Of a stretch of DNA of 64,000 nucleotides, positions 4,364 through 61,726 are shown piece after piece. A program made the position numbers and the translations under genes. How positions within the stretch are numbered: the first letter of the stretch is position 1; each line of letters opens with the position of its first letter. The stretch is from positions 468-64,467 of the forward strand of contig CARNVA010000004.1 of the NCBI GenBank assembly GCA_949031345.1, read 5' to 3'. Source of the DNA: an uncultured Eubacteriales bacterium (GTDB taxonomy: Bacteria; Bacillota; Clostridia; Christensenellales; UBA1242). The notes under the pieces are model-generated. The model worked only from the letters and a program-made list of their open reading frames with translations. It was not told where the DNA came from and did no database searches.

Positions 4364-7300
4364 TTACAATGCTGTATACCCAAGCTCTGCAAGTTTTTCC
4401 ATTGTTAAGTTTCCTCCGCTGCTGCTTATCCATGAAAACCCTTTTGGCAATGGTTGATCGTTTACTGCCAGTGTCCAGTTTGCAAATGGGTTTGTTTCGC
4501 TGCTATGGGTCACATACTTCTTTACTATGTTGTCGTTATCCTTGTTCTGTATATACAAGCTGCTCTTGATTGTTCCGCTTCCCTTTGTAATGGCATAGTT
4601 TGTTGTAGAGTTTGCAAAGCAGTCAATTACGCTTCCGCCGTTTAAGTTGCCTGTAAGAAGGCCTGTATTACTTCCTCCTGTTACGCTTCCAATAAAACCA
4701 CATGATTGCAAGGTTATTCCGCTTGTTGTTGTTTGGCCGAGTATTCCTCCACAGTCTGCATTTGATGCCGACGCTGTTACGCTGCCCTTCATATAGCAGT
4801 TTTCAAGGCGTGTACCTGTTCCGCCATTACGCCCAAGGATTCCTCCTACATAGTCATTTCCGTTTACGCTTCCATAGTTATAGCTTGACAAAATTGATGT
4901 GCTTACTCCATAGCCTATCATTCCTACATTGTTGTGTCCTGTCACTGTTGCTCCGCTTCGGCAGTTTTCTATGCTTCCGTTGTTGAGGTTGCCGACTATC
5001 GAGCCAACATTATCATAGCCTCGGATAGTACCCGATATGATATTCACATTCTTTATCGTTGCATTTCTTGTATAACCAAACAGACCTACATTTGAATAGA
5101 GATAATAGCCAGATTCACTCTCAACTCTCGCACTTGAGGTGGTAAGATTTGTTATCAAATAACCATTGCCATCATAATTGCCTTGAAAAGCTGTCTTCTC
5201 ACTGCCTATCGGCAACCACAATCTTCCACTTAAATCTATACTTTCAGTCTGCTTAAAATACTTTCCTGCAAAAGTTATACCATTTGCCACCGCTTTTGAA
5301 ATGTACGCAAGGTCTTCCTTGCATGAAATAAAATATGGATCGTTTATTGTTCCACTTCCAGTTAGACCGCTTGAAGCATAAGTGTTCCATGTTTCATCCC
5401 ACTGCGCAAATAAGGTAATATTATTTGTAAAATTTGAAACATATTGTCTTTCATAAAATTTTGTACCACTGCCATTAGCACTTGTGTTCCAACCTTTAAA
5501 TAAATAATCATTTCTAGAAAACGCATTGCTTGTCAACTGTTTAGCAGCACTGTTGTAAGTCAATTGCATACTTTCCATGTTGCCAACTCCGCCATTTGAA
5601 TTAAAGCAAATGTTTATTGTTTTAGGCGTCCAGTGTGCATATAATGTATGATTACCCACAATCGTCACCGTTGCATTGCTTTCGATCTTACTTCCACCAC
5701 TTAAATCTGTATACCAGCCATCAAAGTCATAGCCTATTCTGTCATTAACAAGAGGCAGATGTCCATAACTCGAATTAAATTTTACATTTTTTTCGACATT
5801 ATTTCCATTCATCACCCAATCTTTCAATTCGTAAATGTAAAAACTTCCTCCGTTTGCATTGGCCGTGACTTTATAAGTGTTTGCCTCCCACACTGCATAC
5901 AAATCAACGGTAGAAGCACCAGCAGTCGTCAATTTGCTTACACTTGCTCCATCAGAATAGATTACTCCACCGTTTGCGCTTGTAGCCCATCCTTTAAATG
6001 TATATCCCGGCCGGACAAAAGTATTCCTTTGTAAAGCATGAGGTGTGCCATATGTAAACCCGCCTTGTGATGTTGTTGTATACGGAGAAAAGTTGGAATT
6101 AAACCGGACTGAATATGATATCCCTGTCCAGTGCGCGTAAATAGTGTGATCGCATGCCGTTGTCATTTTTGTAGAAGAGCTTACCACTGTTCCACCAATT
6201 GCTTCTGTATACCATCCTGTAAAATTATAGCCCGTTCTTGTAGGTGTTGGAAGTGTGTCATAAGTTGAATCATAATTGATACTTTTAGTTGCTATAGACC
6301 CACTGCCAGTCCATCCAGTTGTATATGGAATGCTTCCGTATTCGCCATTTACATCTGCAGTCACCGTGTATGAATTTGATACCCAATGTGCATATATTGT
6401 GCGGTTGCCTAAAGTTGTCACTTTTGTAGAAGATGAAACATATGTCCCGCCACTTGCTGAGGTATACCAACCTAAAAAACTATCTCCCGTTCTTGTAGGT
6501 GTTGGAAGGTGGCCATATTTGCTGTCATAATAAACCGTCTTTTTTGAAGTTAAAACACTTCCGCCATTGGGATCAAAGAGCAAATCATATTCATTTGCAG
6601 GACAATACGCATAAAAATAAGGGTTTATAGTGTAGGCTACACAATCGGCATTATTCTGATATGTCGAAAGTTTTACATTGTTTGAGTCTCTCCATTCTTG
6701 AAAATGATAACCCGTCTTAACAGAAGTTGCAGGCAAACGGTATTTCTTACCATATTCTGTTGTCACCGAACCTATATAACTGGTTGTAGTACCGACATCA
6801 GGAGAGTAATATTTGTGATAGTGCTTGGCATCTACAGATTTTGCTGACACATAAAAATCCACCTTGAATGAAACATTTCCCCAGATTCCAACAGCAAGTT
6901 GAGCATTTTTGCTACTATCGTAGTTAGCATCTGCATAACTATCAAAATTGGTTACTTTCTTCTCAAACTTCTCAAAATCACCATCCGCATATATATTTGC
7001 ATAAACATCATAATAATATGACCTAAACCCTTCAAGGTATAAGTTTACAGCACAGTCTTTATTACTGATGGCTGAGCCTGAAGTTGAGCTTGAGTTTGAT
7101 GTTGATGAAGAGTTTATGAAGGCGTGCCCCCAGTCAAAGTCTGGGTCTGGGCCATCTATGCCCTGTTTAACATTATAAGAAGCACCGGGCCCGTAAATTG
7201 AGTATGTATGTCCGTCAGAGGTGACTGATAAAGTATTCTTAGTTGCATCCAAATTGCTTTTCAACGCGCCACCACTTGCATAAAGATATATGGTCGTTCT

Positions 7301-7426
7301 TATCGTCTTTGCGTCAGTCTGTATATTTTTAAGCTGTGGCGTAAAAAGAATAAGCAATCCACATGCCAAACAAATCAAACATATAAATGAAAGTGAAAAA
7401 TATTTAAAATTTCTTTTCATTTTCAT
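4364..7426 (-). CDS. Large surface protein A: Listeria-Bacteroides (Flg_new) repeats plus a C-terminal GLUG-repeat module
   Basis: 1020-aa ORF with an N-terminal hydrophobic signal/anchor (FSLSFICLICLACGLLILF). About 5 repeats carry the G(Y/F)xFxGW(Y/N)T...(T/L)(I/L)YA(H/V)W signature. The C-terminal ~330 aa has GLUG-like units (NVGLFGY, VGSIVGN, VGGILGR, CGGILGQ). It is paralogous to 37270-40659, 49856-53407 and 58570-61593. Confidence 0.8.
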   Translation of the reverse strand: MKMKRNFKYFSLSFICLICLACGLLILFTPQLKNIQTDAKTIRTTIYLYASGGALKSNLDATKNTLSVTSDGHTYSIYGPGASYNVKQGIDGPDPDFDWGHAFINSSSTSNSSSTSGSAISNKDCAVNLYLEGFRSYYYDVYANIYADGDFEKFEKKVTNFDSYADANYDSSKNAQLAVGIWGNVSFKVDFYVSAKSVDAKHYHKYYSPDVGTTTSYIGSVTTEYGKKYRLPATSVKTGYHFQEWRDSNNVKLSTYQNNADCVAYTINPYFYAYCPANEYDLLFDPNGGSVLTSKKTVYYDSKYGHLPTPTRTGDSFLGWYTSASGGTYVSSSTKVTTLGNRTIYAHWVSNSYTVTADVNGEYGSIPYTTGWTGSGSIATKSINYDSTYDTLPTPTRTGYNFTGWYTEAIGGTVVSSSTKMTTACDHTIYAHWTGISYSVRFNSNFSPYTTTSQGGFTYGTPHALQRNTFVRPGYTFKGWATSANGGVIYSDGASVSKLTTAGASTVDLYAVWEANTYKVTANANGGSFYIYELKDWVMNGNNVEKNVKFNSSYGHLPLVNDRIGYDFDGWYTDLSGGSKIESNATVTIVGNHTLYAHWTPKTINICFNSNGGVGNMESMQLTYNSAAKQLTSNAFSRNDYLFKGWNTSANGSGTKFYERQYVSNFTNNITLFAQWDETWNTYASSGLTGSGTINDPYFISCKEDLAYISKAVANGITFAGKYFKQTESIDLSGRLWLPIGSEKTAFQGNYDGNGYLITNLTTSSARVESESGYYLYSNVGLFGYTRNATIKNVNIISGTIRGYDNVGSIVGNLNNGSIENCRSGATVTGHNNVGMIGYGVSTSILSSYNYGSVNGNDYVGGILGRNGGTGTRLENCYMKGSVTASASNADCGGILGQTTTSGITLQSCGFIGSVTGGSNTGLLTGNLNGGSVIDCFANSTTNYAITKGSGTIKSSLYIQNKDNDNIVKKYVTHSSETNPFANWTLAVNDQPLPKGFSWISSSGGNLTMEKLAELGYTAL

Positions 7427-7521: not shown

Positions 7522-7549
7522 ATTTTACCCCCCCCCGATTTATTGTCAA
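7522..7549 (-). promoter_or_regulatory. Sigma-A-type promoter with a G9 tract in the spacer (surface gene A)
   Basis: Minus strand 7549->7522 reads TTGACA ATAAATC GGGGGGGGG TAAAAT. The plus-strand C9 is at 7528-7536 and the spacer is 16 nt. The promoter lies ~95 nt upstream of the ATG at 7426. Confidence 0.7.
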
Positions 7550-8583: not shown

Positions 8584-9387
8584 TTATATTTCAATTTCGT
8601 CATCAATATTTTGATCAACCTTTTGCGTAGAAGCAAAATTATTTTCCAGCACATCAAGCGAGCAAAAACCTCTGCATTCGTTACAATTTTGAAGTTGCTC
8701 TTTTTCCGCTTTTCTAAGCCTGCTGTAGCTTATTTTGTTATCAACAGTAGGATTTACATTCATCACCTTTGCAACAGCATCAGAATGAATAACATACAAG
8801 TTTGTGCGGCTGCTGACCAAGTTTTGCTCTTCTGCAGCAACGACAGACGAAAGAATGCTGTTTACAGTACCACCAATTATGTAAATACAATCATATGCAC
8901 TTTTGATTTTATCATTCAAAATATCTTTGTTTGGATGACTGTTGAAAAGAAAATAATTTTCGTCGTAAACGCTTGTCAAATTTAAATGAGAATCAATGCT
9001 TGTCCATTGAGAAGCACAGTTTCCATACTCTTGCACCAGTTTGATATTTTCTAAAACAGCACTTATTCTGCTGTAACCACCACTTATAGAAAAATATTTA
9101 TTATTGACCTGCCCAACGCATTTGATATTCATTGGCACATATTGATCTTTTTCACCTATTGCATAAAGAAAAACAATAAGACCAGTATTTTCATTTACAA
9201 AAAGATGATTAAAATGGTTTTTGCCCATGGTCTTATCAGTATATGAAAAATCTGCATCTTTTTTAAAACCCAAAGCCTCAAGTTTTTCGACAACACCATC
9301 AAATCTTTCACTTTCATGCTTCTTCATGATTTTTTTCTTATTTTTGATTGAAGTTTCAAAAGCTTGAATTACCCAACTTTTTGCCAT
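8584..9387 (-). CDS. Hypothetical protein
   Basis: 267-aa ORF with a G-rich RBS (AGGGGGGA) 4 nt upstream of the ATG. I recognise no family. Confidence 0.5.
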   Translation of the reverse strand: MAKSWVIQAFETSIKNKKKIMKKHESERFDGVVEKLEALGFKKDADFSYTDKTMGKNHFNHLFVNENTGLIVFLYAIGEKDQYVPMNIKCVGQVNNKYFSISGGYSRISAVLENIKLVQEYGNCASQWTSIDSHLNLTSVYDENYFLFNSHPNKDILNDKIKSAYDCIYIIGGTVNSILSSVVAAEEQNLVSSRTNLYVIHSDAVAKVMNVNPTVDNKISYSRLRKAEKEQLQNCNECRGFCSLDVLENNFASTQKVDQNIDDEIEI

Positions 9388-9442
9388 ATATCCCCCCTAT
9401 ATAAACGAAAAACACCTTTGCTATAAAGGCGCTTTTTCTTAA

Positions 9443-36761: not shown

Positions 36762-37028
36762 TTATGAGCAAGCAGAAACTATCAACCCAATAAACATCAA
36801 AAATACAACAAGCCCAATCATAACGCCAAGCCCGATAAGCCAGCCTTTAATAAAAGTCTTTCGTTCATACTCATATTGTGGCAATGGATATAAAAGCAGG
36901 CCGACAATAAGCCCGATTATTCCAAGCAGAAATAAAAGTATCCCAATTCCAAGTTTTGATTGTCTTTTGAAAGAAAGACCTTTAAAATCTTCCCCATTTT
37001 GCCCATTCTTATCTTCAAAATGTTCCAA
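36762..37028 (-). CDS. Small membrane protein (paralog of 42600-42895)
   Basis: The in-frame TTG at 37026-37028 is preceded by AAGGTGGGAGAAT. The product is (M)EHFEDKNGQNGEDFKGLSFKRQSKLGIGILLFLLGIIGLIVGLLLYP...ERKTFIKGWL... The tracked ORF start (TTG at 37076) is actually the -35 hexamer. Confidence 0.55.
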   Translation of the reverse strand: MEHFEDKNGQNGEDFKGLSFKRQSKLGIGILLFLLGIIGLIVGLLLYPLPQYEYERKTFIKGWLIGLGVMIGLVVFLMFIGLIVSACS

Positions 37029-37049: not shown

Positions 37050-37076
37050 ATTATACCCCCCCCCGAAATATGTCAA
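37050..37076 (-). promoter_or_regulatory. Sigma-A-type promoter with a G9 tract in the spacer (small membrane-protein gene)
   Basis: Minus strand 37076->37050 reads TTGACA TATTTC GGGGGGGGG TATAAT. The plus-strand C9 is at 37056-37064 and the spacer is 15 nt. Confidence 0.65.
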
Positions 37077-37269: not shown

Positions 37270-40200
37270 TTAATATTGCTCAAATCCCCATTTTACAAGG
37301 TCTTCTGTTGTTATGCCTTTATTCCCTCTTGCAAGCCACGAAAGTCCATCTGGCAGCGGTTGCCCAGTATCAGTAATAATCCAAGCCGAAAAGTCACTTC
37401 CTATAAAATGCTTTTGTATGCCCTCGATTTCATAAATTGAGTTGTTTACCACAACATTTTCTATATCCATCGCACTCCAAACAGAAGATTTTGCAAAGCA
37501 GTTGTTGACAGAGCTTTTGATATCACTGTTTACTTGACCGACAATAAGCCCTAAAAAGTCGCCGCCAACAATATCACCCATATAGCCACAAGCTGCAATT
37601 CTTATTACGCTTGCGTTTGCACAACCCAAGATGCCGCCGATGTACATTTCACCAGAAATATTACTTTTTGAAAAACTATTTTCAATTGCGATGAAGTTTT
37701 CAGTTGTAATGGTGCCATTGTAAAAGCCAATTATTCCACCCAAATTATATTCGCCAGTAATATTGCCATAGTTGAAACACCCAACAACTTTAACATCCTC
37801 GCCTCTGCCTATCATTCCACAAGAGTCATAACCAACGATTTTTACTCCACTTCGGCAATTTTCAATCAAGCCTGTGTACGCAACTCCGACTAACGAGCCC
37901 ACATTTTCATAACCATAAACATTTCCAGAAACAATATTTATATTTTTAAGTATTGCACTGTTGCAAAAGCCAAACAAACCGACATTTGAATAAATTTGAT
38001 TTCCATAAGCATCAACCACATCAATAGTTTTTAAATTGCTTATTAAAAAACCTTGCCCGTCATAAACGCCCTTAAAAGCACGCTGACTATTATCTGTCCC
38101 AATTGGAAGCCAAATATTGTCTAAAAGGTCAATTGGTCTTGTTTGCTTAAAGTATTTATCACCGAAAGTTTCACCATGTTTAACTCGATATGATAAATAT
38201 GCCAAATCTTCAGCACTTGAAATTAAATATGGTGAGCTTTCATCGCCATTACCTTGAAAAGCCTCTGTTCTATTTAAAATCGGCAAATGCCAAGTTGTAT
38301 CCCATTGTGCATAAAGTGTCAAATTTGCAGTAAGATTGCTTATTGCACTGTTTTCAAGATAAATCTCACCACCATATTGCGAAGTTGACCAATGTTTAAA
38401 AGTATATCCCTCTTTAACAAAAGCATTATCTGCAAGCCTCACAAAGCCTGCATCATAGGTCACCGATTGAGAAGGCATGCTTCCACTGCCACCATTGCCA
38501 TAAAAAATTATTGAATATGTTTTTGGCCTCCAATGAGCGTAGAGAATGCTGTCTCCTGCGATATTGTATTTTCCTGTTGTATCAACTTTTGTTCCGCCAG
38601 TCGCACTTGTCCACCAACCCTCAAAGATATATTCTCCATCTTTTGTTGGCGTTGGAATATCACCATAGACTTCATCATAAGTGACCTCTTTGGTAATTTC
38701 TTCTGCAACTTCGTTTGACGAGCTTATCAAATCAAAAGCGATTTCATAATCTATATTATTACCAATAAACTTAGCACTGATTGGTGCAAAGAAATAGAAA
38801 TAAAAGACATGGCTTCCAGCACTGATATCTGAAAATATAACACGAGTGCTTCCGCTTAAATTTTTCGTGGTCCAATATGGCTTATCGTATGAAAAGCTGT
38901 CTAATTGAGTAACTCCGAAGTCCACAGCGTAAAGGTCTTTACCCGTTTTTTGTTTAATATCAAAGCTTATAGACAAACTTATCCTAGCATCTTTGATGGC
39001 AACAAAACTTACCGAATATAAAGCGTCCCCTGCCCAAAATCCACCTTTTATCTTTCCGCCAGTTTCAGTCTTTGCTATTCCAGGGCCATAAGTCAAATTA
39101 CTTATTATTTCGTTGCTTTTGAAATCAAAGTATCCGCTATTTGCGTTTAGCGTCAATTCATAATTATTTGGTTTCCAAATTGCCTTGAAAGTTTTCGTCC
39201 CATTGGCTCCTAAATAAGGGACTTTGTCTATTCTGCAAGTTCCATCAGCGTTTGCATTATAAAAATAGTTTGTATAACCAGGTTGTGTGCATTGCCAACC
39301 AACAAGACTATAGCCTCTTTTTACAGGCACAGGGAAGCTGTATGGTCTCCTTTCTATGACGCCACTTTGACTTGAAGATGAGCTATCATTATATATGCCA
39401 CCATTATAATCAAGACAGAATGTATATTCTTGGAAAAGTGTTGAGATGGCTTTTGAAAGATTGAAGTGAAGCGCTGGTCGAACAGCAAGTGACTGATTTA
39501 CATATTCGCCGTCCCCTTGTGCTCCATTTGGAAAAAGAAGCATGCCATACAAAGAGCTGTCAAGAAATGCCGACCTGGTCCACGAGTATGTATAAACTCC
39601 ACTATTGTTTCTAGTGCCAACTGTTCCTAACAAGTCAGTTGTGCTGCCGTTGAAATTTTTTCGTTGGTTATTTGACAAACCCCACATACCAGGATGAGAG
39701 CTGCTATCACCAGTTTCTGAAATGCTAGGCAGCCATATAAAATCATTGCTCCAGGCACTATTTAATGATTTATTTGCATAATTGTAATAGCTTCTCTTGG
39801 AAGAATTATAATAAAAACGATAAGACGTTCCATTATAAGAGCCCGAATTTGGAATGCTTGATGACCAATTTTCATTCGAAGCAGAATATGCTACACCTAT
39901 ATAAGTCCTAGTATTTTGACCATACTCCTGCCATTGAACATTTGCCGGTTTAACTAAGTATTCGGTAACATTTCCGCTCACACTCGACATAGTAAACTTT
40001 GCAAAAGGGCTGTCAGTACTTTGAGAGCCTGGATTCAAAGCATTGCTTCGTGCAGCATAAGACCCACCATTATTTAAAGTAGCCGACCTTATATAACTTA
40101 GCCCATACATGTTTGATGGATTATGACTACTTGGTGCATCCTCTCTCCAATTTGCAGACCAATCTGAATATAACCCGCCATTCAACAGCCCATGATAATT

Positions 40201-40659
40201 ACCTAAATTTTTGGTTGTAGAGCCCCAAGCTTCCTGCTTGCAGTTTGTAAGCCATAAAGTAATAATGGTATTGCCCGAGGTGTCTTTTGAAAGATAAACC
40301 ACCTGCCAATCAAGTCCACCAAAACGAACAACAACATCTTGCGAAGAGGTCTTATTGTATGTCTTTGACCTTATAATTGAAGCTTTTGTTTTGGATGAGG
40401 CCATACCATCAATAGTTGCCTTATTTGAAATAGTGGTGTCGGCGCTTCCAGAAATATATTTAAGAAGGGTATTTAAATTTGTTTCTGAAAAACTGCTTCC
40501 ATTATAAAGCTCATCAACCTTAACATAGGATGTTGTATCAGTTGAGGTAATAGCCTCCGTTTGCTTGATAATTCCACTATATTGAAGCCCCATAAGAAAA
40601 CTGCATAAAGCAAAAAGGAGACAAGACATTGTTACTGAAATCCTCCTCAATAATCTCAT
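37270..40659 (-). CDS. Large surface protein B: distinct N-terminal region, Flg_new repeats and a GLUG-repeat C-terminal module
   Basis: 1129-aa ORF with a GGAGGTGAGATATG RBS and a signal/anchor. The N-terminal ~400 aa (VVVRFGGLDWQVVYLSKD...IWLPSISETG...YSWTRSA) is possibly DUF6273-like. Flg_new units are present (GYSLVGWQC, FEGWWTSATGGT...LYAHW, GYTFKHWST...LYAQW). The conserved C-terminal module is SPYLISSAEDLAYLSYRV...GLFGF...LGGIIGF...IGGILGC...QPLPDGLSW. Confidence 0.8.
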   Translation of the reverse strand: MRLLRRISVTMSCLLFALCSFLMGLQYSGIIKQTEAITSTDTTSYVKVDELYNGSSFSETNLNTLLKYISGSADTTISNKATIDGMASSKTKASIIRSKTYNKTSSQDVVVRFGGLDWQVVYLSKDTSGNTIITLWLTNCKQEAWGSTTKNLGNYHGLLNGGLYSDWSANWREDAPSSHNPSNMYGLSYIRSATLNNGGSYAARSNALNPGSQSTDSPFAKFTMSSVSGNVTEYLVKPANVQWQEYGQNTRTYIGVAYSASNENWSSSIPNSGSYNGTSYRFYYNSSKRSYYNYANKSLNSAWSNDFIWLPSISETGDSSSHPGMWGLSNNQRKNFNGSTTDLLGTVGTRNNSGVYTYSWTRSAFLDSSLYGMLLFPNGAQGDGEYVNQSLAVRPALHFNLSKAISTLFQEYTFCLDYNGGIYNDSSSSSQSGVIERRPYSFPVPVKRGYSLVGWQCTQPGYTNYFYNANADGTCRIDKVPYLGANGTKTFKAIWKPNNYELTLNANSGYFDFKSNEIISNLTYGPGIAKTETGGKIKGGFWAGDALYSVSFVAIKDARISLSISFDIKQKTGKDLYAVDFGVTQLDSFSYDKPYWTTKNLSGSTRVIFSDISAGSHVFYFYFFAPISAKFIGNNIDYEIAFDLISSSNEVAEEITKEVTYDEVYGDIPTPTKDGEYIFEGWWTSATGGTKVDTTGKYNIAGDSILYAHWRPKTYSIIFYGNGGSGSMPSQSVTYDAGFVRLADNAFVKEGYTFKHWSTSQYGGEIYLENSAISNLTANLTLYAQWDTTWHLPILNRTEAFQGNGDESSPYLISSAEDLAYLSYRVKHGETFGDKYFKQTRPIDLLDNIWLPIGTDNSQRAFKGVYDGQGFLISNLKTIDVVDAYGNQIYSNVGLFGFCNSAILKNINIVSGNVYGYENVGSLVGVAYTGLIENCRSGVKIVGYDSCGMIGRGEDVKVVGCFNYGNITGEYNLGGIIGFYNGTITTENFIAIENSFSKSNISGEMYIGGILGCANASVIRIAACGYMGDIVGGDFLGLIVGQVNSDIKSSVNNCFAKSSVWSAMDIENVVVNNSIYEIEGIQKHFIGSDFSAWIITDTGQPLPDGLSWLARGNKGITTEDLVKWGFEQY

Positions 40660-40810
40660 ATCTCACCTCCTTCTATTATTATGCGCATAAAGTAATATTA
40701 CATTTACACAACATCTTTTTTATCAACTAATAGAATAAAAATAAAACATAATGCTAATCCTCTTGTAAATTTTCTTTATTCATATTTTTTCGTTTAATAT
40801 TTATGTCATA

Positions 40811-40839
40811 ATTTTACCCCCCCCGGTAAATTTTGTCAA
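40811..40839 (-). promoter_or_regulatory. Sigma-A-type promoter with a G8 tract in the spacer (surface gene B)
   Basis: Minus strand 40839->40811 reads TTGACA AAATTTACC GGGGGGGG TAAAAT. The plus-strand C8 is at 40817-40824 and the spacer is 17 nt. Confidence 0.7.
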
Positions 40840-40850
40840 GTAAAATACAA

Positions 40851-40876
40851 GAAATCTTCAAATTTTTGAAGATTTC
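40851..40876 (-). terminator. Hairpin terminator after the oxidoreductase gene
   Basis: Perfect 12-bp-arm palindrome GAAATCTTCAAA-TT-TTTGAAGATTTC. Confidence 0.55.
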
Positions 40877-40891
40877 TTATATATTATTTTA

Positions 40892-42292
40892 TTATATTGA
40901 TTTTACTCTTTCTAAAATATCTCTTGCTGAGACAAGACCGGTGGCTGCCGCGACAACAATGTTTCCTGCCTTACCAGCACCATCTCCAATGAAATAAAGA
41001 TTTTTTGTCAAACACTTAAACTTATTATCTGTTTCAATTTCATTGCTGAAGAATTTAATTTCTGGACCATACAACAGTGTCTCATCATTATTCACACCTG
41101 GGATAATCTTATCAAGTTCTTCCAGTCCCTCTAAAATATTTTTTATAATTCTATATGGAAGCACCAGCGCAAGGTCTCCAGCAACGCAATCTTTAAGTGT
41201 TGGCTCAATGAAACCTTTGTTAAGCCTGTGCCATTCACTTCTTCTTCCACATCTTAAATCTCTCAGACACTGAATAATAGGCTTTTTGTCACCAAGAACA
41301 TTGGCTATTCTTGCAATTGACTCACCAAATTGCCTTGTATTTGTCACCGGCTGAGTAAGATTAACCTTGCAAATGAAAGCGAAGTTTGAATTGTTTGATT
41401 TTACATCTTTCAATGCGTGACCGTTGACGCAAATATAACCATAGTAATTTTCTTTTGTAACATATCCGCCAGGATTTGTGCAGAATGTCCTTATCTCATC
41501 ACCATAAGTTTTTGTCTTTATAAATATAGTTGGGTCATATATGACATCAGTGATTTTTTTCAAGACTTCCTTTCTTGTCTCCACCCTAACGCCAATCTCT
41601 ATGCTTTGAGAATTGTAAGGGATGTTATGCTTGTCCAAAAAGCCTTGCATCCAGCCAGCACCCGTTCTTCCAGGGGCAATTGTCACAAACTTTGCCAAAA
41701 AACTGTCATCTTTGCCAGCAAGCTTGAAGATGACTTTATTGTCATTTCCTTCATCTTCAATATCAATTACATCACAGTCTTCAAGAATTGTCACGCCTTT
41801 ATTTTCTAAATATTCAGTAAAATTTTCAATGTATGACGGAAGTTTGTCTGAGCCTAAATGTTTTTGCTTAATTAAAAGAAGTCTTGCACCTTTAAGTGTA
41901 ACATTTTCTTTAATTCTTTCGCTTTCTTCGCTGCTTTTTGGATAAACTTCGGCATCCATTCCAAACTTATTAAAGATTTCTTCCGTTTCATCAATAAGTT
42001 TATAAGCCTCTTCCTGCCCCATATACTTAAACAAATCGCTTTTTCCAAGCTTTGGAATAAAATTTAATTTACCATCTGAAAAAGTACCTGCACCGCCATA
42101 ACCAGATAAAATTTGACAAGGATTGCAATTAAAACATTTGCCTGTCTTTTTCATAGGACAAACTCTGTTTCTTGCCCTTTTTCCCTTGTCAAGAAGACAA
42201 ATCTTCAAAGCGGGATTATTTTCAATCAATTCATAAGCACAAAACAGACCTGCAGGCCCTGCGCCAACTATTACAACATCAAATTTTTCCAT
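40892..42292 (-). CDS. FAD-dependent oxidoreductase (COG2509-like)
   Basis: FDVVIVGAGPAGLFCAYEL dinucleotide-binding motif. 466 aa, with a C-terminal GDGAGKAGNIVVAAATG. Confidence 0.75.
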   Translation of the reverse strand: MEKFDVVIVGAGPAGLFCAYELIENNPALKICLLDKGKRARNRVCPMKKTGKCFNCNPCQILSGYGGAGTFSDGKLNFIPKLGKSDLFKYMGQEEAYKLIDETEEIFNKFGMDAEVYPKSSEESERIKENVTLKGARLLLIKQKHLGSDKLPSYIENFTEYLENKGVTILEDCDVIDIEDEGNDNKVIFKLAGKDDSFLAKFVTIAPGRTGAGWMQGFLDKHNIPYNSQSIEIGVRVETRKEVLKKITDVIYDPTIFIKTKTYGDEIRTFCTNPGGYVTKENYYGYICVNGHALKDVKSNNSNFAFICKVNLTQPVTNTRQFGESIARIANVLGDKKPIIQCLRDLRCGRRSEWHRLNKGFIEPTLKDCVAGDLALVLPYRIIKNILEGLEELDKIIPGVNNDETLLYGPEIKFFSNEIETDNKFKCLTKNLYFIGDGAGKAGNIVVAAATGLVSARDILERVKSI

Positions 42293-42599: not shown

Positions 42600-42895
42600 T
42601 TAACAAATAAACATTAAGCTTGCAGCCGCACTAAGCACTGTAGCATAAAGAATAATAACGATAACTACATACACAGCGAGTGAAACGAAGAAGCACCAAA
42701 GCCATCCTTTAAGGAAAGTCTTGCGTTCTAAAGAGCCGTCTTTATAAAGCAAAAGACCAATAATAAGCCCAATAAGCCCAATAAAGCCACACAAAACACC
42801 AATACCAACTTTAGAGGCCCCCCATTAGTGTTGCCTTGGTTTTGAACATTGTTTGTGTTGTTGTCACTGTATTGATTGTTGTTTTGTTCTTCCAT
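42600..42895 (-). pseudogene. Small membrane protein (paralog of 36762-37028) with its frame broken at a G6 run
   Basis: ATG at 42895 after AAGGAGG gives MEEQNNNQYSDNNTNNVQNQGNTNGG, then runs out of frame at C6 (42818-42823). G7 would fuse it to ...ASKVGIGVLCGFIGLIGLIIGLLLYKDGSLERKTFLKGWL... (tracked ORF 42600-42794). Confidence 0.65.
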
Positions 42896-49855: not shown

Positions 49856-52800
49856 TTACATTTGATTAAATCCAAGCTCAGTCAATTTTTCAATGGTAAG
49901 TTTTTCTCCGCCTTCGCCAAGCCAAGCTAAGCCTTTTGGAAGAGGTTGACCATTCTCTAAAATAGACCAATTTTCAAAAGGATTTTCCAAAGTGCTTATT
50001 TTGTAATATTTTTTCTCTGAGGATCCCCCTTTATTTTCTATAATTAAAGTGCTTTTTATAGAAAATGAAGATCGAGAAAATGGCAGAAAAGCTGAAGCAA
50101 AAGCAAAGCAATCCACAACTTCACCATCCATTCTTCCACAGAATTGACCTGCCCCGCTTCCTCCTTGCACTGTTCCCAGCACACCACAACTTCTAATAAT
50201 ATTGCCAGTTGTATTGTCAGCATTACCAAGAATGCCTCCACTATTAGAATAATTTGCGGCAGCTTTAATAAACGCATCAACAAAACAATTTTCAATTACA
50301 GATTTCTCTTTTGAAATTGCGCCAGCTATTCCCCCAACACTATTCAAACCTGTCAAATTTCCATAATTTAAACAAGAAGATACTGTAAAGCCTGAAACTG
50401 CGCCAAACATTCCACAATATGCATATCCATTTACATTCACACTGCTTTTGCAATTTATCGCAGCTCCTGTATCAGAATATCCTGTTATCGCCCCTGAATA
50501 ATACTGCCCAAAGACATTTCCTTTTACAAGGTTGATATTTTTTAACACTGCACCTTTGCTGAAACCAAAAAGACCAACATAGTTGTAAAGATAGATTTCA
50601 CCCAAAGCCATATAATAAGTCTGAACAAGTCTCATATTTAAAATCGGAAAGCCCTGCCCATCATAAATTCCTTGAAAGCTGTTTCCAGTATTCGTCGCGC
50701 TGACAGTCGAGCCGCCAATTGGTCGCCATAAATTGTATCCAAGCTCAATAGGTGCGGTCTGCTTAAAATATTTGCCAGCAAAAGTCACTCCTTCTTCAAC
50801 TCTCTTTGAAATATAAGCCAAATCCTCAGCACTTGCAATCAAGTATGGATTTTCTGCGCTGCCTTGATTTTCAGTCTGGCTTGCTTGAAGTGTATTTGAC
50901 GCAAAAATGTTCCAAGTCTCCTGCCACTCTGCCCTCAATTCAAACAATCGGTCACTGCTGTCAACAACGCTGCTTGGCAGTGTGCTTATTGTCGCTCCGT
51001 CATAATAAGCTTTGCCATTGTTTGTCCAATTTCTAAACAAATATCCTGTTTTTAAATATGAAATGGTTGGCAAAGTCAAACTTGTGCCATAGGTGTAAAC
51101 CCTGTCTTGCATCTGTCCTGAGGTATGCCCATTGCCATTAAATCTGATGGTATATTGTTTTGGCGTCCACTTAGCATACAAGGTAAATGATGACAAATAG
51201 CTTGTATATGGGCTGCTTGAAATGCTATTCAAAACCTTTCTTTCTGAAAGCGGCGCCCCTTCATTATCTTGCAAACTTTCACCATTTTCAAATTCGACTC
51301 CGCCTCCTAAAGACTTTGCCCAGCCTACAAAATCATAACCCGTGCGAGTAAACTCATTGTTTTTAATCTCTTGGCCGTTGCCATAAACGCAACTTTGACT
51401 GGTCATGCTTCCATTTCCGCCATTTGCATTAAAATTTATTGTATAAGGCCTTCCACTCCAAACTGCATACAAATCGAATACTTCATTCTCATTCGACCTC
51501 AAGTTTGAAACGCTTTGCCCTGGATTATAGACCTTGGTTTGTCCAGCACTGCTTGTATCCCATCCAAGCAAGGTAAACCCATGCCGGACAAACTCATTCG
51601 CTTTAAGGTTTTGCGACTGATTGTATGTAAATTGCTGTGATATGGATTTTTTCCCGTCACCCGTGAGAATGTCTCCACCAGCACTGTTTTTTCCGCCATG
51701 AAAGGTTACACTATATTTAATAGGCGTCCAATGCGCATAAATTGTGTGATTATTAGCTATATTCAAAATCGTAGAAGTAGAAATCTTTGTTCCGCCCGTC
51801 TGCGCTGTAAACCATCCGTCAAATTTATATCCTGTTCTGCTTACAGAAGGAAGATATTGATAGGTTTCTCCAAAGATTACATTTCTTATGCAACCTTCAC
51901 CAGAAATTACCCAGCCGGTAGTGGAAGTAAAACTTCCGCCATTTGCATCCGCTGTAGCCAGATATGTCATTGGTGCCCATTGCGCATAAAGCGTCACATT
52001 GCCAATTATATCATACTTTTTTATTGCTTGACCGTTCTCATTATAATATTGGGTCCCGCCCCTTCCAGAACTAGTATAATAACCTTTGAATCTATATCCA
52101 GTTTTTACAGGAATTTTCACAGTGTTCATTTCCTTGCCAAGCCAAACATTGCAAGAACTATCACTTGAGTTTTGAAAACTGCCACCATCCGCATTAAAAC
52201 TTGCAGTATATTTTATTTCATCAAGCTCACCATTTGTATAGTAATCTCTATATCTTCCAGAAACATAAGATACATCAGAATAAAGCGTGCCTCTGCCACC
52301 CTTACTTCCTGTTGCGCCACCAATTCCACCGGTGGCTTGACTTAATACATCATTGCAATAAGTATCATAGTAGGCAGATTCTCCACTAGAACCACCAATT
52401 AACCCGGTACCACCGGAGCCACCAGCTCCACCGCTATATTTATATCCCTTTCTAGAAGTATAGGTGCCACCAGCACCTCCGCCGCCTCCGCCGCCTCCGG
52501 CACCTGCGCCACCACCAATTGCATCAGCATTAACAGAACCTGCGCCACCACCGCCGCCTGCTCCGCCTCCGCCAGAGGCGTAATAATTTTTCCAACCAGA
52601 ACCAGCATCATTTGCTGTTCCTCCAGCGCTGCCACCACTGCCACCTTTAAAATTTTGTTCTCTTCCACCAGCAGTTGCAATTACTGTAACTCCACCAAAG
52701 ACATACAGGTCACCCATTGCAGAGCCGTCACCGCCTTTATATCCATTTTTTCCGAAACCGCCCTGCGCGTCATATTGATCACCATATTCACATTCTTTTG

Positions 52801-53407
52801 TCGCACATACACCACCAGAGCCACCATAACCGCCAGAGCCGCCATAGCCACCAATTCCTGCGCCAGCACCTGAGCCTCCTCTGCCTCCGTCGCCACCAGT
52901 ACCACCTCTGTACTTGTTGTCACTAATTGAAAGATAACCATTATATCCACTATCTCCATTACCGCCGCTTCCCGCATTTCCACCAGTGGCTTTTAAAGAT
53001 CCTTCACCTACGACTATCAGTCTCTTTCCATAATGCAATGAAATTCCTGCCTCGCCAACACTAGCGGTTACGGTCACTGTAATATTTTTTGGTATATATA
53101 AAACAACAGTGCCGCTCACACTTGCTCCATAAGACATAGTCACATTACTAATTGCTTTATAGACAGTATCTGAATAAAAGTATTGCTTATTACTAAAAGT
53201 GCCATTCATTGTAATACACTTTGTAAAACCACTACTCGCATTAGCGACTTTTTCTTCTTCCAAATTTTTATACGAGGTCACAACTGAAAAATAAAATATA
53301 AAAAACGCAAGGCAAATAAAAAGACAAGAAAGATAAATCTTTCTCATTTCAGAGTTATTCTTTTTATGACTTATTTCATTCTTTAAACTTTTATTAAACT
53401 TTGCCAA
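49856..53407 (-). CDS. Large surface protein C: Gly-rich N-terminal region, Flg_new repeats and a GLUG-repeat C-terminal module
   Basis: 1183-aa ORF with a TTG start after GGAGG and a TM anchor (IYLSCLFICLAFFIFYFSVV). A ~230-aa glycine-rich region is followed by Flg_new units (GYRFKGYYTS, GYKFDGWFTAQTGGT...IYAHW, GFTLLGWDT, GYDFVGWAK, GYLFRNWT). The conserved C-terminal module is NPYLIASAEDLAYISKRV...GLFGF...VGGIAGA...SGGILGN...QPLPKGLAW. Confidence 0.8.
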   Translation of the reverse strand: MAKFNKSLKNEISHKKNNSEMRKIYLSCLFICLAFFIFYFSVVTSYKNLEEEKVANASSGFTKCITMNGTFSNKQYFYSDTVYKAISNVTMSYGASVSGTVVLYIPKNITVTVTASVGEAGISLHYGKRLIVVGEGSLKATGGNAGSGGNGDSGYNGYLSISDNKYRGGTGGDGGRGGSGAGAGIGGYGGSGGYGGSGGVCATKECEYGDQYDAQGGFGKNGYKGGDGSAMGDLYVFGGVTVIATAGGREQNFKGGSGGSAGGTANDAGSGWKNYYASGGGGAGGGGGAGSVNADAIGGGAGAGGGGGGGGAGGTYTSRKGYKYSGGAGGSGGTGLIGGSSGESAYYDTYCNDVLSQATGGIGGATGSKGGRGTLYSDVSYVSGRYRDYYTNGELDEIKYTASFNADGGSFQNSSDSSCNVWLGKEMNTVKIPVKTGYRFKGYYTSSGRGGTQYYNENGQAIKKYDIIGNVTLYAQWAPMTYLATADANGGSFTSTTGWVISGEGCIRNVIFGETYQYLPSVSRTGYKFDGWFTAQTGGTKISTSTILNIANNHTIYAHWTPIKYSVTFHGGKNSAGGDILTGDGKKSISQQFTYNQSQNLKANEFVRHGFTLLGWDTSSAGQTKVYNPGQSVSNLRSNENEVFDLYAVWSGRPYTINFNANGGNGSMTSQSCVYGNGQEIKNNEFTRTGYDFVGWAKSLGGGVEFENGESLQDNEGAPLSERKVLNSISSSPYTSYLSSFTLYAKWTPKQYTIRFNGNGHTSGQMQDRVYTYGTSLTLPTISYLKTGYLFRNWTNNGKAYYDGATISTLPSSVVDSSDRLFELRAEWQETWNIFASNTLQASQTENQGSAENPYLIASAEDLAYISKRVEEGVTFAGKYFKQTAPIELGYNLWRPIGGSTVSATNTGNSFQGIYDGQGFPILNMRLVQTYYMALGEIYLYNYVGLFGFSKGAVLKNINLVKGNVFGQYYSGAITGYSDTGAAINCKSSVNVNGYAYCGMFGAVSGFTVSSCLNYGNLTGLNSVGGIAGAISKEKSVIENCFVDAFIKAAANYSNSGGILGNADNTTGNIIRSCGVLGTVQGGSGAGQFCGRMDGEVVDCFAFASAFLPFSRSSFSIKSTLIIENKGGSSEKKYYKISTLENPFENWSILENGQPLPKGLAWLGEGGEKLTIEKLTELGFNQM
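52300..52990 (-). repeat. Low-complexity GGN-rich coding region (glycine-rich domain of protein C)
   Basis: The plus strand is dominated by imperfect ccacc/gccgcc/accagc units and encodes GGTGGDGGRGGSGAGAGIGGYGGSGGYGGSGG...GGGGAGGGGGAGS...GGGAGAGGGGGGGGAGG. GC content here is locally much higher than in the rest of the window. Confidence 0.8.
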
Positions 53408-53506: not shown

Positions 53507-53534
53507 ATTTTACCCCCCCCCGACACATTGTCAA
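53507..53534 (-). promoter_or_regulatory. Sigma-A-type promoter with a G9 tract in the spacer (surface gene C)
   Basis: Minus strand 53534->53507 reads TTGACA ATGTGTC GGGGGGGGG TAAAAT. The plus-strand C9 is at 53513-53521 and the spacer is 16 nt. Confidence 0.7.
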
Positions 53535-58569: not shown

Positions 58570-61500
58570 TTATGCTTTTGAAAAGCCACTTTCACTTAAA
58601 TCAAATTCAACTTCAGTGCTGCCACGCCATATAAGTGCTCTTGGTAAAGGCTTTCCGTCTTCTAGCATTATCCACTGTGAAAAATCTTCTCCAACATATT
58701 TTTTAACGCCATTAAACTCAAATAAGCAATTCAATACCGTCGCTTCCCCATAATATTGCAAAACGAAGCCATCGGCATTATTCAACAATTTTGAAAAGCA
58801 GTTTTCTATCGTTCCACTTAAAACAGAATAGCCAACAAACAAGCCTCGTTTGCCACTTGCTACTTCCATATTTTCCTCAAAACAACAAGCTGAAAGTATA
58901 AAGTTTTGAGCAGCATAGCCTATCAGCCCACCACAATAGTTTGAAGCAATCAAGCTCATTTTTGACATGCAGTTTTTCATTTCAAAATTTATTCCCGAAA
59001 CTTCACCAATCAGCCCTCCAACCTTATCACCTGTCGCTGAAATGCTTCCATAACAATAGCAGTTTTCAACAGAGACATTATCTTTTACTCGGCCAATAAC
59101 ACCTCCTACTTTTGCCGAAGCTTTAATTTCTACAGACGCGGAAGAGCCCACTATAACTGCATTTTCTGCTTTGCCAACTATCGCTGCCACCTCTTCATTT
59201 CCAGAGACTTTGCCAAATAATCTGACATTTTTAATAATGACTGGATTATCTATTTTCTCACCTTCAACACGACCGAATAGTCCTTGACAATTATCATAAT
59301 AGCCATTGATAACATTTATTCCTTCTATCTTAAAACCCTGTCCATCAAAACAGCCTTTAAAAGCAAAATCCTCACTGCCAATTGGCTTCCATATATTATC
59401 ACTTAAATCAATGTTTGCTGTTTGTTTAACTTGAAATCTGGAATTATTGATTTCACATTCACTTGCAAGCCAAGCAAGCTCTTGGGCATTTGAAATGAGA
59501 TAAATTCCACCTTCATTTTTAGGTTGTTTAATATTTGATAAATGGGCCCAACTGTCTTGCCATTCTGCAGTTAAAGTCACATCTTCTGCCTTGATTATCG
59601 TATTCTCACCTGCAATAAGCCCATTCACATCAAACCAGCCCAGAAAAATCTGTCCCCTCTTGGTCGGTTTTGGCAAATATCCAAAAGCAGAATTATATTC
59701 AATATCTTTAACAGCCATTCCATTCTCAATTTTCCATCCATTCATGTTGATGGGATAACTTCCACCTTTAATGTCAAGTTTCAGTTTATAATGATTTATT
59801 TCCCAAATAGCATGGAGATTTATGATTTCGCCCTCTTTTGAGGCCAAGTTTTTCACAATCTGCTCATCATAATATAGAGGCTCTTTCGCACTTGAGTCAG
59901 TATTCCAGCCCACAAATGAATAGCCCTCTTTTGTAAAGCTGTTTGAAGAAAGAGCATTGCCTTGCTCAGAAGCGCTTTTGTAAATAAAGTTTTGATTTGG
60001 CATGGAGCCTATTCCACTATTGCCATTAAAACAAACGCTATAACTATTTGCCCGCCACTGAGCAAAGAAGGTTGCAATGACTTCATTATTGCCAAGATTT
60101 GGCATAGTTAAATATAAACTTTGGTCGGAAGAATTGGTCTGATAAATTACATCGTCAAAACTGCATCGCCAGCCCGTCAAAGTGTAACCTTCCTTCTTAG
60201 GAATTGGGAAATAATACCCCTGCCCAAACTTTAGTTTGGTTGAAGAAGAGGAAGAATTATCAGAATTGAGTCCACCGTTGAAATCAAATACAACATTATA
60301 ATCATTTTCGAGCCACTGTGCATAAATCGAGTGTGCCGATCCCTTATTCATAACAGTGCTTGAAGTCACCTCTGTGCCTCCACTTGAAGCAAAATACCAG
60401 CCTTTTAAATGACAACCATCCCTTATAACCTGCGGAAAATTTCCATAATTGGTCAAATATGTAATATCTTTCTTCGCATTGTCGCCATTCTTAGTCCAAC
60501 CATTTAAGTTAGAGCCCAGCTTGCCTCCATTGACATTTGCAGTGACCGCATAACTACCTTTTTCCCATTGAGCATAAATGTAAGCAAGCGTTTCAAACCC
60601 AAAAGTTGTTGACACAGTAACCTCTGTACCTCCACTCGCTTCAGTAAACCAACCTTTCAAGACATAACCAGTCCTTGACACAATTGGAAAGCTTCCTAAA
60701 GGATTGCCATAGGCTATATTTTTTGTAATAGAACTTGCAATTTGATTCCAACCATTTGCAGAAACAAGAGTGCCTCCATTTGTATAAGCACTTACCGAAC
60801 AAGTTTGAGCTCTCCACTGTGCATAAAGAGTCATAGACGGCGGTGCAACTTTTAATGCAGCACCACTGCTGCTGAAATAATCATCGCCTCTGCCATCAGC
60901 TCGAGAGTTATAGCCCAAAAATGTATGTCCAGTTTTAGTAGGACAGGTTATTGATGACATGCTCATCCCATAACTTACTCGTTTGCTTGATGTTCCACCC
61001 GACCCGCCTTGCTTATCAAAGGTAAGCGTCACACCACTTGCCACCGAATAAAACAAAGGTGTTATAATTATTTCTTCGTCAAAAGAGGCCGAATTCGAAT
61101 AATTGTTTACATCTGTTTGCGACATTCTCCAATATGTTTCTGAGCTTATTTTAGTCCAACCATAATCGCTATTGTTTTCATACCAGCCTGCAAATTTAAC
61201 TACACTTGAAGATGAAAGATAAAAACTTAAGGCTATTGGATAATAATCTGTGGTAGAATTAAGAGACAGATTATGAGGCAAACTATAAACTATTTCATCA
61301 TAAGAATCGTCTGAATAGAGATACATGCTTGGTCGATTGATATACACTTTTTCTTGGTCGCTTGAAGATATATCTTTTACACTTATTCTATTTGACGATG
61401 GGGCACTTGTTGAAGCATATAGTCTTGGCCCTGCCACTTTTAAAGTGTAATTTGCAGCACTGACAGAATTTTCGCTTATTTTAGCAATCTTGTCATAAAA

Positions 61501-61593
61501 AAGCTTTCCCATTCCAGATATGGTGAATATCCCCATGAGGCACAAAAATATTGCAATGAAAGATAATACTATAAAGTTTAAATTCTTTTTCAT
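58570..61593 (-). CDS. Large surface protein D: Flg_new repeats and a divergent GLUG-repeat C-terminal module
   Basis: 1007-aa ORF with a signal/anchor (FIVLSFIAIFLCLMGIF). Flg_new units are present (GHTFLGYNS...LYAQW, GYVLKGWFTEASGGT...IYAQW, GCHLKGWYFASSGGT, GYTLTGWRC, GYSFVGWNT, GQIFLGWFD). The C-terminal module is IYLISNAQELAWLA...GLFGR...VGGVIGR...VGGLIGE...CGGLIGY...KPLPRALIW. Confidence 0.8.
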   Translation of the reverse strand: MKKNLNFIVLSFIAIFLCLMGIFTISGMGKLFYDKIAKISENSVSAANYTLKVAGPRLYASTSAPSSNRISVKDISSSDQEKVYINRPSMYLYSDDSYDEIVYSLPHNLSLNSTTDYYPIALSFYLSSSSVVKFAGWYENNSDYGWTKISSETYWRMSQTDVNNYSNSASFDEEIIITPLFYSVASGVTLTFDKQGGSGGTSSKRVSYGMSMSSITCPTKTGHTFLGYNSRADGRGDDYFSSSGAALKVAPPSMTLYAQWRAQTCSVSAYTNGGTLVSANGWNQIASSITKNIAYGNPLGSFPIVSRTGYVLKGWFTEASGGTEVTVSTTFGFETLAYIYAQWEKGSYAVTANVNGGKLGSNLNGWTKNGDNAKKDITYLTNYGNFPQVIRDGCHLKGWYFASSGGTEVTSSTVMNKGSAHSIYAQWLENDYNVVFDFNGGLNSDNSSSSSTKLKFGQGYYFPIPKKEGYTLTGWRCSFDDVIYQTNSSDQSLYLTMPNLGNNEVIATFFAQWRANSYSVCFNGNSGIGSMPNQNFIYKSASEQGNALSSNSFTKEGYSFVGWNTDSSAKEPLYYDEQIVKNLASKEGEIINLHAIWEINHYKLKLDIKGGSYPINMNGWKIENGMAVKDIEYNSAFGYLPKPTKRGQIFLGWFDVNGLIAGENTIIKAEDVTLTAEWQDSWAHLSNIKQPKNEGGIYLISNAQELAWLASECEINNSRFQVKQTANIDLSDNIWKPIGSEDFAFKGCFDGQGFKIEGINVINGYYDNCQGLFGRVEGEKIDNPVIIKNVRLFGKVSGNEEVAAIVGKAENAVIVGSSASVEIKASAKVGGVIGRVKDNVSVENCYCYGSISATGDKVGGLIGEVSGINFEMKNCMSKMSLIASNYCGGLIGYAAQNFILSACCFEENMEVASGKRGLFVGYSVLSGTIENCFSKLLNNADGFVLQYYGEATVLNCLFEFNGVKKYVGEDFSQWIMLEDGKPLPRALIWRGSTEVEFDLSESGFSKA

Positions 61594-61697: not shown

Positions 61698-61726
61698 ATT
61701 TTATAATTAAACAAGCGTTTCGTCAA
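61698..61726 (-). promoter_or_regulatory. Homologous promoter of surface gene D without a homopolymer tract
   Basis: Minus strand 61726->61698 reads TTGACG AAACGCTTGTTTAATTA TAAAAT, with a 17-nt spacer. It has the same TAAAATTAAA -10 context as genes A and C. Confidence 0.55.

Follow-up and report, generated by a model that had tools for sequence, protein, structure and literature searches.

A candidate poly-G promoter-spacer switch before a predicted surface-protein gene of a gut Clostridia bacterium

What lies at this locus?

The window, by which we mean the whole stretch of 64,000 nucleotides that was analysed, carries three paralogous genes for large repeat proteins (A, B and C), a further member of the same family (E), and genes for two small membrane proteins, D and its paralog D2, the latter lying between an FAD gene and a ribulose-phosphate epimerase gene (Table 1). 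Sporulation genes are also present, which places the organism among the spore-forming Clostridia. The names of the samples carrying its proteins point to mouse gut, and the fetched genome loci include no relatives other than 'uncultured Clostridia bacterium' MAGs, whose DNA is about 71% identical.

A, B and C share 32-38% identity across their C-terminal 450-800 residues, and their repeats are of the Listeria-Bacteroides type (Flg_new / TIGR02543; List_Bact_rpt), in other words internalin-type B repeats. In the AlphaFold model of B (mean pLDDT 81.7), a hydrophobic helix at residues 2-27 is followed by a globular domain spanning about 45-400, which homologs conserve, a repeat region and a C-terminal beta-helix. 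Searching the PDB with the sequence of B yielded no match; Foldseek, run with the model, placed 3n6z first, a Bacteroides ovatus 'putative IgA1 protease' (E 1.7e-6), and also returned the IgA1 proteases of Gemella and S. pneumoniae, with 3n6z, 7uvk and 6xja spanning E 1.7e-6 to 1.7e-3. These matches extend over only part of the model, presumably the predicted beta-helix at its C-terminus.

Two tempting identities for the family were tried and rejected. The first is that of an IgA1 protease (an M26 zinc metalloprotease), for which the structural match is partial only, and the HExxH motif is absent from A, B, C, E, P0002 and F, a paralog found on another contig. The second is that of a class 1 internalin (InlA / InlH), where scores of 41-76 bits, against NCBIfam cut-offs of 1050-1600, come from the B-repeat region only, and where the LPxTG motif is absent from all family members examined. 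With neither HExxH nor LPxTG, the B family is thus made up of neither M26 proteases nor internalins. To judge from the model, what B shares with the IgA1 proteases is a non-catalytic fold and not the protease, and the evidence takes us to a predicted repeat protein that is secreted or anchored by its N-terminus, and no further. From their sequences, the products of A, B and C look surface-exposed.

Downstream of D come a hairpin and, after it, a pyruvate phosphate dikinase gene. Paralog E, with its tract-free promoter and fixed 17-nt spacer, is apparently a non-switching member of the family. It adjoins a gene for a TraG/VirD4-type coupling protein, so part of the region may belong to a conjugative element.

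Table 1. Genes, promoters and hairpins of the window, numbered from its first letter
Feature	Position	Strand	Description
Gene A	4364..7426	minus	1020 aa; carries Flg_new repeats; paralogous to B and C
A promoter	7522..7549	minus	TTGACA-ATAAATC-G9-TAAAAT; G9 at 7536-7528; spacer 16 nt
Gene D	36762..37028	minus	88 aa; hydrophobic in two stretches; begins with TTG here and with ATG in other strains
D promoter	37050..37076	minus	TTGACA-TATTTC-G9-TATAAT; G9 at 37064-37056; spacer 15 nt
Hairpin upstream of D promoter	37090-37112
Gene B	37270..40659	minus	1129 aa; N-terminal hydrophobic helix, conserved domain at ~45-400, Flg_new repeats, C-terminal GLUG-type beta-helix
B promoter	40811..40839	minus	-35 TTGACA 40839-40834; AAATTTACC 40833-40825; G8 40824-40817; -10 TAAAAT 40816-40811; spacer 17 nt
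Terminator-like hairpin of upstream FAD-oxidoreductase gene	40845..40882	minus	17-pair stem, then T-rich tail; ends 5 nt before the B -35
Gene D2	42600..42895	minus	D paralog (37% identity, E 2e-8); G6 at 42823-42818
Gene C	49856..53407	minus	1183 aa; GGAGG precedes its TTG start; carries Flg_new repeats; paralogous to A and B
C promoter	53507..53534	minus	TTGACA-ATGTGTC-G9-TAAAAT; G9 at 53521-53513; spacer 16 nt
Gene E	58570-61593	minus	1007 aa; Flg_new and GLUG
E promoter	61698..61726	minus	TTGACG-17 nt-TAAAAT; tract-free
TraG/VirD4-type gene	61820-63826	minus	coupling protein

How are the poly-G promoters built?

The original prediction had placed poly-G tracts in the promoter spacers of surface and membrane genes, with TTGACA-AAATTTACC-G8-TAAAAT before B as the only one of four such promoters at 17 nt, A and C standing at 16 nt and the small membrane gene D at 15 nt. 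All of this agrees with our own reading. The reverse complement of 40500-41100, which holds the B promoter, reads cTTGACAaaatttaccGGGGGGGGTAAAATtatgac (in longer context, cttgtattttacTTGACAaaatttaccGGGGGGGGTAAAATtatgacat), and the sequence, coordinates and lengths are as predicted. In a consensus promoter scan the site matches at 11 of 12 positions, with a perfect -35. The repeat therefore sits between recognisable -35 and -10 hexamers, as it does in porA and TP0126, and here it directly adjoins the -10.

Such an arrangement is not what the composition of the window (35% G+C) would produce. Only four G runs of seven or more occur in it, all on the minus strand and each inside one of these promoters, and runs of eight or more are absent outside them; G7 words number 11, against 2.27 expected. 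The pattern TTGACA-N4-11-G7-TAWAAT has four matches in the 64 kb, against 0.00 in 100 dinucleotide-preserving shuffles, so that chance is no explanation. We also considered that the 16- and 18-nt spacers might be compensated by alternative -35 hexamers shifted by one base, and rejected these by eye, at 2/6 consensus positions only. A shorter run, G6 at 9392-9397 on the minus strand, is the ribosome-binding site of the gene at 8584-9387 (AGGGGGGATATATG); three other assemblies (L137, L139 and L144) have G5 there, a difference that may simply track strain lineage.

The terminator-like hairpin just upstream of the B promoter is predicted to insulate B from read-through, and B should hence depend on its own promoter. 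The hairpins upstream of the B and D promoters are alike (AAGAAATCTTCAAAAATTTGAAGATTTCTT vs AAATCTCCAAAAATTGGAGATTT) and both promoters start 'tacTTGACA'; this shared terminator-promoter module may have been duplicated. Between the -10 and the B gene there is a leader of about 150 nt, which is AT-rich and could hide a second promoter.

A fifth promoter of the same design belongs to the B-like paralog F (P0006, 1320 aa), which lies on another contig, apparently of the same species; one sample has A, B and F at the same coverage. Its promoter, TTGACA-TTTTTC-G9/G10-TAAAAT (L278-L283, e.g. L280:806-840), stands about 650 nt upstream of the start codon with no ORF between, which would mean either an unusually long leader or a separate small transcript. 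Rfam and tRNA scans of the window gave no matches, and the long leaders are thus not explained by any known riboswitch or leader RNA.

Do the tracts vary within the species?

They do. We retrieved the loci from other public assemblies via neighbouring conserved proteins (for C, via the SpoIIR gene), leaving near-identical places out of the counts; the tract lengths are those of consensus assemblies, the samples behind some of them may be related, and homopolymers are prone to error. B has G8, and hence 17 nt, in one of eight assemblies, GCA_949036025.1, which is evidently the window's own record, and G9 (18 nt) in the other seven. A is G9 in ten (16 nt) and G8 in one (L137); C is G9 in five (16 nt) and G10 in one (17 nt; L148, GCA_948709035.1); D is G9 in nine (15 nt) and G8 in two (L004 and L126); and F is G9 in four and G10 in two. 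The commonest length at all five promoter loci is therefore G9, whatever the non-G part of the spacer, a regularity that the original prediction overlooked. No locus is without deviations of one G, which run down to G8 at some loci and up to G10 at others.

The flanks of these alleles hardly change. Comparison of the window's G8 allele of B with the G9 of L128 gives a single difference in 1816 nt, and no difference at all separates L148 (G10) from the window (G9) over 2000 nt at C, L004 (G8) from L003 (G9) over 1843 nt at D, or L283 (G10) from L279 (G9) over 1817 nt at F. The columns of the B promoter alignment do not vary apart from a few in the flanks, and inside the promoter core only the tract length differs. 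Repeat-number variation on unchanged flanks, as expected of phase variation of the porA and TP0126 type, is thus found at B, C, D and F. Which locus happens to stand at 17 nt also changes from assembly to assembly: it is B in the window and C in GCA_948709035.1, and most assemblies have no locus at that length, just as independently mutating loci would give. The predicted independence of the loci is borne out in this respect.

Over longer distances the tract persists. L006, a divergent strain, retains it, and L276, from another species, has an ortholog of 47% identity with TTGACA-AAAAGTCGT-G9-TAAAAT, where the tract is kept and the non-G spacer differs. A metagenome scan for the exact B-promoter flanks with a free gap between them found nothing.

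The interval between B and D varies between strains as well (L001:11300-13401; L126:1-4400): in one strain B is followed by phage-like genes (HTH, ERF), and in another the genes ahead of D encode an rve transposase and an ART-PolyVal protein of 2862 aa. To judge from these gene contents, it looks like an integration hotspot.

D2, which the original prediction also passed over, brings a different kind of poly-G tract into the picture, one that lies inside the gene. The window's G6 allele is out of frame and leaves a 55-aa frameshifted stub; G7 gives the full 98 aa, G8 gives 28 aa and G9 with an added A gives 99 aa. As predicted from these alleles, D2 is a classical translational (frameshifting) contingency locus, and it brings the poly-G contingency loci in this organism to at least six, five promoter-spacer tracts and one intragenic. 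The range from G6 to G9 is too wide for consensus errors of one base, and it indicates that poly-G slippage is at work in this species.

This matters for a sceptical reading of all that precedes, namely that the length differences are sequencing or assembly miscalls, that the tracts are fixed at G9 and that the G8 of the window is an error. The B allele does indeed rest on one consensus MAG and could in itself be a one-base homopolymer miscall, and all the promoter deviations are of a single base around G9. Some contigs also end at or beside tracts (L132 at the D -35, L131 at a distance of 50 nt ahead of it, and L145 just past the A -10), where assemblers evidently struggle; yet such breaks are equally expected from real within-sample heterogeneity, so that they are suggestive of either that or poor poly-G coverage. 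Miscalls would not readily produce deviations at every locus, to G8 at some and to G10 at others, nor the four lengths of D2, nor differences of up to two G between orthologous loci in the survey described below (among the matches listed), and we regard miscalling as the least probable of the alternatives considered here, and very improbable as a general account.

How might spacer length control B?

The argument turns on whether 17 nt is the spacing that these promoters would prefer. As controls we took tract-free TTGACA-N-TA[TA]AAT pairs in 240 loci fetched from other bacteria (two sets, 0.8 + 0.9 Mb). Among the matches listed, the first set has 24 pairs at 17 nt against 2 at 16 and 3 at 18, and the second has 12 at 17 nt against 3 at 16 and 2 at 18. 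According to PMC7864442, which summarises the experiments, the poly-G spacers of T. pallidum TP0126 and N. meningitidis porA work best at the same length. The spacer of the tract-free paralog E is likewise 17 nt. The premise that 17 nt is canonical therefore stands, being strongly preferred by the tract-free consensus promoters of comparable bacteria and by E.

The corollary, that A and C would be 'reduced or OFF', is too strong. Within the window, near-consensus tract-free promoters have 16 nt as often as 17 nt, in counts that lie near the shuffle expectation, and TTGATA-16-TATAAT before the FAD gene is likely a real tract-free 16-nt promoter. In porA, a 16-nt spacer gives intermediate expression. 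For both of these reasons a graded order, with B high, A and C intermediate and D low, seems more defensible than a choice of ON or OFF; the genes A and C may be well expressed from their 16-nt promoters, and a 16-nt spacer is probably not an OFF state. In addition, with a perfect -35 and a G at -14 (half of an extended -10), the promoter could absorb changes of one nucleotide.

With a probability of roughly 70%, we think that B is governed by a slipped-strand promoter-spacer switch of the porA / TP0126 type. The G8 run, a hypermutable homopolymer, would form the 3' half of the spacer in a sigma-70/sigma-A-type promoter, and slipped-strand mispairing during replication would add or remove single G's, altering the distance and the rotational phasing between -35 and -10 and, through them, the strength of the promoter that drives B. 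At G8 the spacer would be at its 17-nt optimum, and the genotype assembled in the window would hence be the high-expression (ON) state of B, the usual G9 (18 nt) being a lower one. A and C, at 16 nt, would lie below their optimum, which would be reached at G10, and D, at 15 nt, far below its own, which would need G11. With each locus switching alone, a population would come to carry a mix of surface-protein combinations. It is from sequence comparison that we infer the slippage mechanism, its reversibility, the switching rates and the effect on transcription.

Are such promoters found elsewhere?

Two generic scans, one of genomes (L007-L125) and one of metagenomes (L156-L275), suggest that they are. 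The genome pattern reached spacers of up to 17 nt only, and the spacer distribution was accordingly taken from a wider pattern applied to metagenome contigs, which gave at least 109 non-duplicate promoters with tracts of G8 or longer. Among the matches listed, 18 have a spacer of 15 nt, 11 of 16, 9 of 17, 22 of 18, 25 of 19 and 10 of 20; after clustering (at least 89 loci) the corresponding numbers among those listed are 15, 10, 8, 17, 21 and 8. The distribution of these listed matches is bimodal, with tract-bearing promoters gathered at 15-16 and 18-19 nt and a trough at 17, where only 9 of 85 are found, a deficit against the tract-free controls (Fisher p = 2e-6 and 1e-11). Without its G's the spacer peaks at lengths of 6 and 9 nt, and the G mode is 9-10. 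The number of G's differs on identical non-G spacers in 6 of 16 multi-member clusters, and orthologous loci from different samples are up to 2 G apart (all among the matches listed).

Among the matches listed, as in the window, the tract always adjoins the -10 and always has its G's on the non-template strand. Genes downstream are mostly those for lipoproteins or signal-peptide proteins, and by a crude heuristic 60% of first downstream ORFs have signal-peptide-like N-termini, against 28% of control ORFs, again among the matches listed. Such promoters occur by the hundred in gut metagenomes and MAGs, and the matches listed come from Clostridia, Lachnospiraceae, Christensenellaceae, Treponema, Patescibacteria and Microcystis.

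These findings bear on two further ways of reading the tracts at B and its relatives. One grants that the length variation is real and holds it to be near-neutral: B would be driven mainly by another promoter, one in its leader, or any spacer of 16 to 18 nt would do, given the perfect -35 and the G at -14, and the tracts would be mutational hot spots with no role as switches. The length of the leaders (about 150 nt and AT-rich at B, about 650 nt at F), the plausible 16-nt tract-free promoters of the window and the restriction of the promoter alleles to a single G either way are all compatible with this; but it leaves it unexplained that G8-or-longer runs, otherwise absent from the window, share one promoter position before paralogous surface genes four times over, and that the tract is conserved in the 47%-identical ortholog of another species despite a different non-G spacer. 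The enrichment upstream of exported proteins and the avoidance of 17 nt, seen among the survey matches listed, would also be hard to obtain without selection on spacing. We consider near-neutrality unlikely, if the strongest of the competitors.

The other reading makes the number of G's itself the signal, acting through a regulator or through DNA structure and not through spacing, as in tprE/G/J or with the poly-C of meningococcal opc; under such a rule too B, having G8, would be ON and the loci with G9 OFF. It accommodates the prevalence of G9 at all five promoter loci irrespective of the non-G spacer, and the constant position and strand of the tract, and for the tpr genes both a rule that eight or fewer G's are permissive and CRP-dependent modulation are on record (PMC7864442). 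On the other hand, the tract stands squarely between canonical hexamers, the survey spacers cluster at 15-19 nt (among the matches listed), which a pure G-count rule would not need, and TP0126 and porA, with the same anatomy, obey the 17-nt rule. No regulator site was identified. On balance a G-count rule seems to us improbable, somewhat more so than near-neutrality, and the spacer switch is still the reading that we favour.

The constancy of the G9 mode does nonetheless call for some account, and tract length could be set by mutation bias or by something besides spacing. In C. jejuni, the mutational biases of poly-G tracts (insertions at G8, deletions at G11 or longer) keep them at G9-G10 (PMC8355987). 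As G9 is commonest here whatever the non-G spacer, almost every locus in almost every assembly is off the optimum, at 15, 16, 16 or 18 nt. Were a bias like that of C. jejuni to apply, these promoters might rest 1-2 nt away from it and reach 17 nt in minority variants only; the G8 of B in the window would then be one such variant, which should tend to drift back to G9.

From here it is tempting, and we do so quite tentatively since we would sooner bet against the idea than on it, to suggest that 'detuned' poly-G switches form a pervasive and apparently undescribed class in gut Firmicutes (and also in Treponema, Patescibacteria and Microcystis). Their tracts of G8-12 would abut the -10, with a non-G part of 6-7 or 9 nt, so that the G9-10 equilibrium would fall 1-2 nt short of or beyond 17; genes for exported proteins and lipoproteins would be low by default, and the optimum would be attained in minority variants through expansion in one class and contraction in the other.

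The literature that we searched holds no prior description of poly-G promoter switches in gut Clostridia or Lachnospiraceae, an absence that is no proof of novelty. Phase variation in gut commensals is known mostly from the invertible promoters of Bacteroides, and repeat-driven switches are regarded mainly as a trait of pathogens such as Neisseria, Haemophilus, Campylobacter and Treponema. Here, in a gut commensal, poly-G loci are predicted to govern large repeat proteins of one paralogous family, along with two small membrane proteins. The ubiquity of the promoters in gut Firmicutes and their bimodal, 'detuned' design are a more novel lead than the B switch itself. If confirmed, tract length would furnish a cheap sequence read-out of surface-protein state in metagenomes, would explain why assemblies break or disagree at the tract sites, and would mark a family with an IgA1-protease-like beta-helix as being under fluctuating selection, for example by IgA or phage.

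How does this compare with known systems?

The closest counterpart is porA of N. meningitidis, where a G homopolymer likewise sits in the spacer of a promoter of sigma-70 type that serves a surface protein gene, and where expression depends on the total spacer, with an optimum at 17 nt and slippage adding or removing one G (van der Ende et al. 1995, as summarised in PMC7864442). It differs in belonging to a proteobacterial pathogen and encoding a porin, whereas B comes from a Gram-positive-type, spore-forming gut Clostridia MAG, whose products are predicted to be N-terminally anchored Listeria-Bacteroides-repeat proteins and which has at least five promoters of this design in one genome. For B, a surface or envelope product is indicated by predicted features, namely the hydrophobic helix 2-27, the Flg_new/List_Bact_rpt repeats and the GLUG-type beta-helix. 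In T. pallidum, TP0126 (an OmpW homolog) has poly-G between -35 and -10 too, with about 8-10 G that vary between and within strains and the best transcription at a total spacer of 17 nt (Giacani et al. 2015, cited in PMC7864442). That gene belongs to another phylum and another gene family, and the effect of its tract was demonstrated with reporter constructs, where ours is deduced from comparing sequences.

The subfamily II genes tprE/G/J, together with tprL, of T. pallidum have poly-G in the promoters of a paralogous surface-protein family, and at tprE/G/J eight or fewer G's are permissive (PMC7864442). At tprL, however, the tract overlaps the -10 and leaves the spacing unaltered (PMC7864442), in contrast to the tracts described here, which lie strictly between intact hexamers.

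C. jejuni offers the nearest parallel for the genome as a whole, being a low-G+C gut bacterium with many tracts of G8-G11, with a hold at G9-G10 that matches the G9 mode seen here, and with combinatorial 'phasotypes' across its loci; its tracts are mostly intragenic and frameshifting, whereas five of the six known here lie in promoter spacers and only D2 is intragenic. Two other systems, the vlp genes of Mycoplasma hyorhinis, with poly-A in the promoter spacer, and hifA/hifB of Haemophilus influenzae, with TA repeats, also give paralogous surface proteins a spacer tract each, so that independent switching generates combinatorial variation; they differ in the repeat unit, A or TA rather than G, and of course in the organisms and proteins concerned. 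Taken as sequence, then, the anatomy of the B promoter appears to agree with porA and TP0126 feature for feature, and in its multi-locus, combinatorial side the system is akin to the vlp family of Mycoplasma and to the phasome of C. jejuni.
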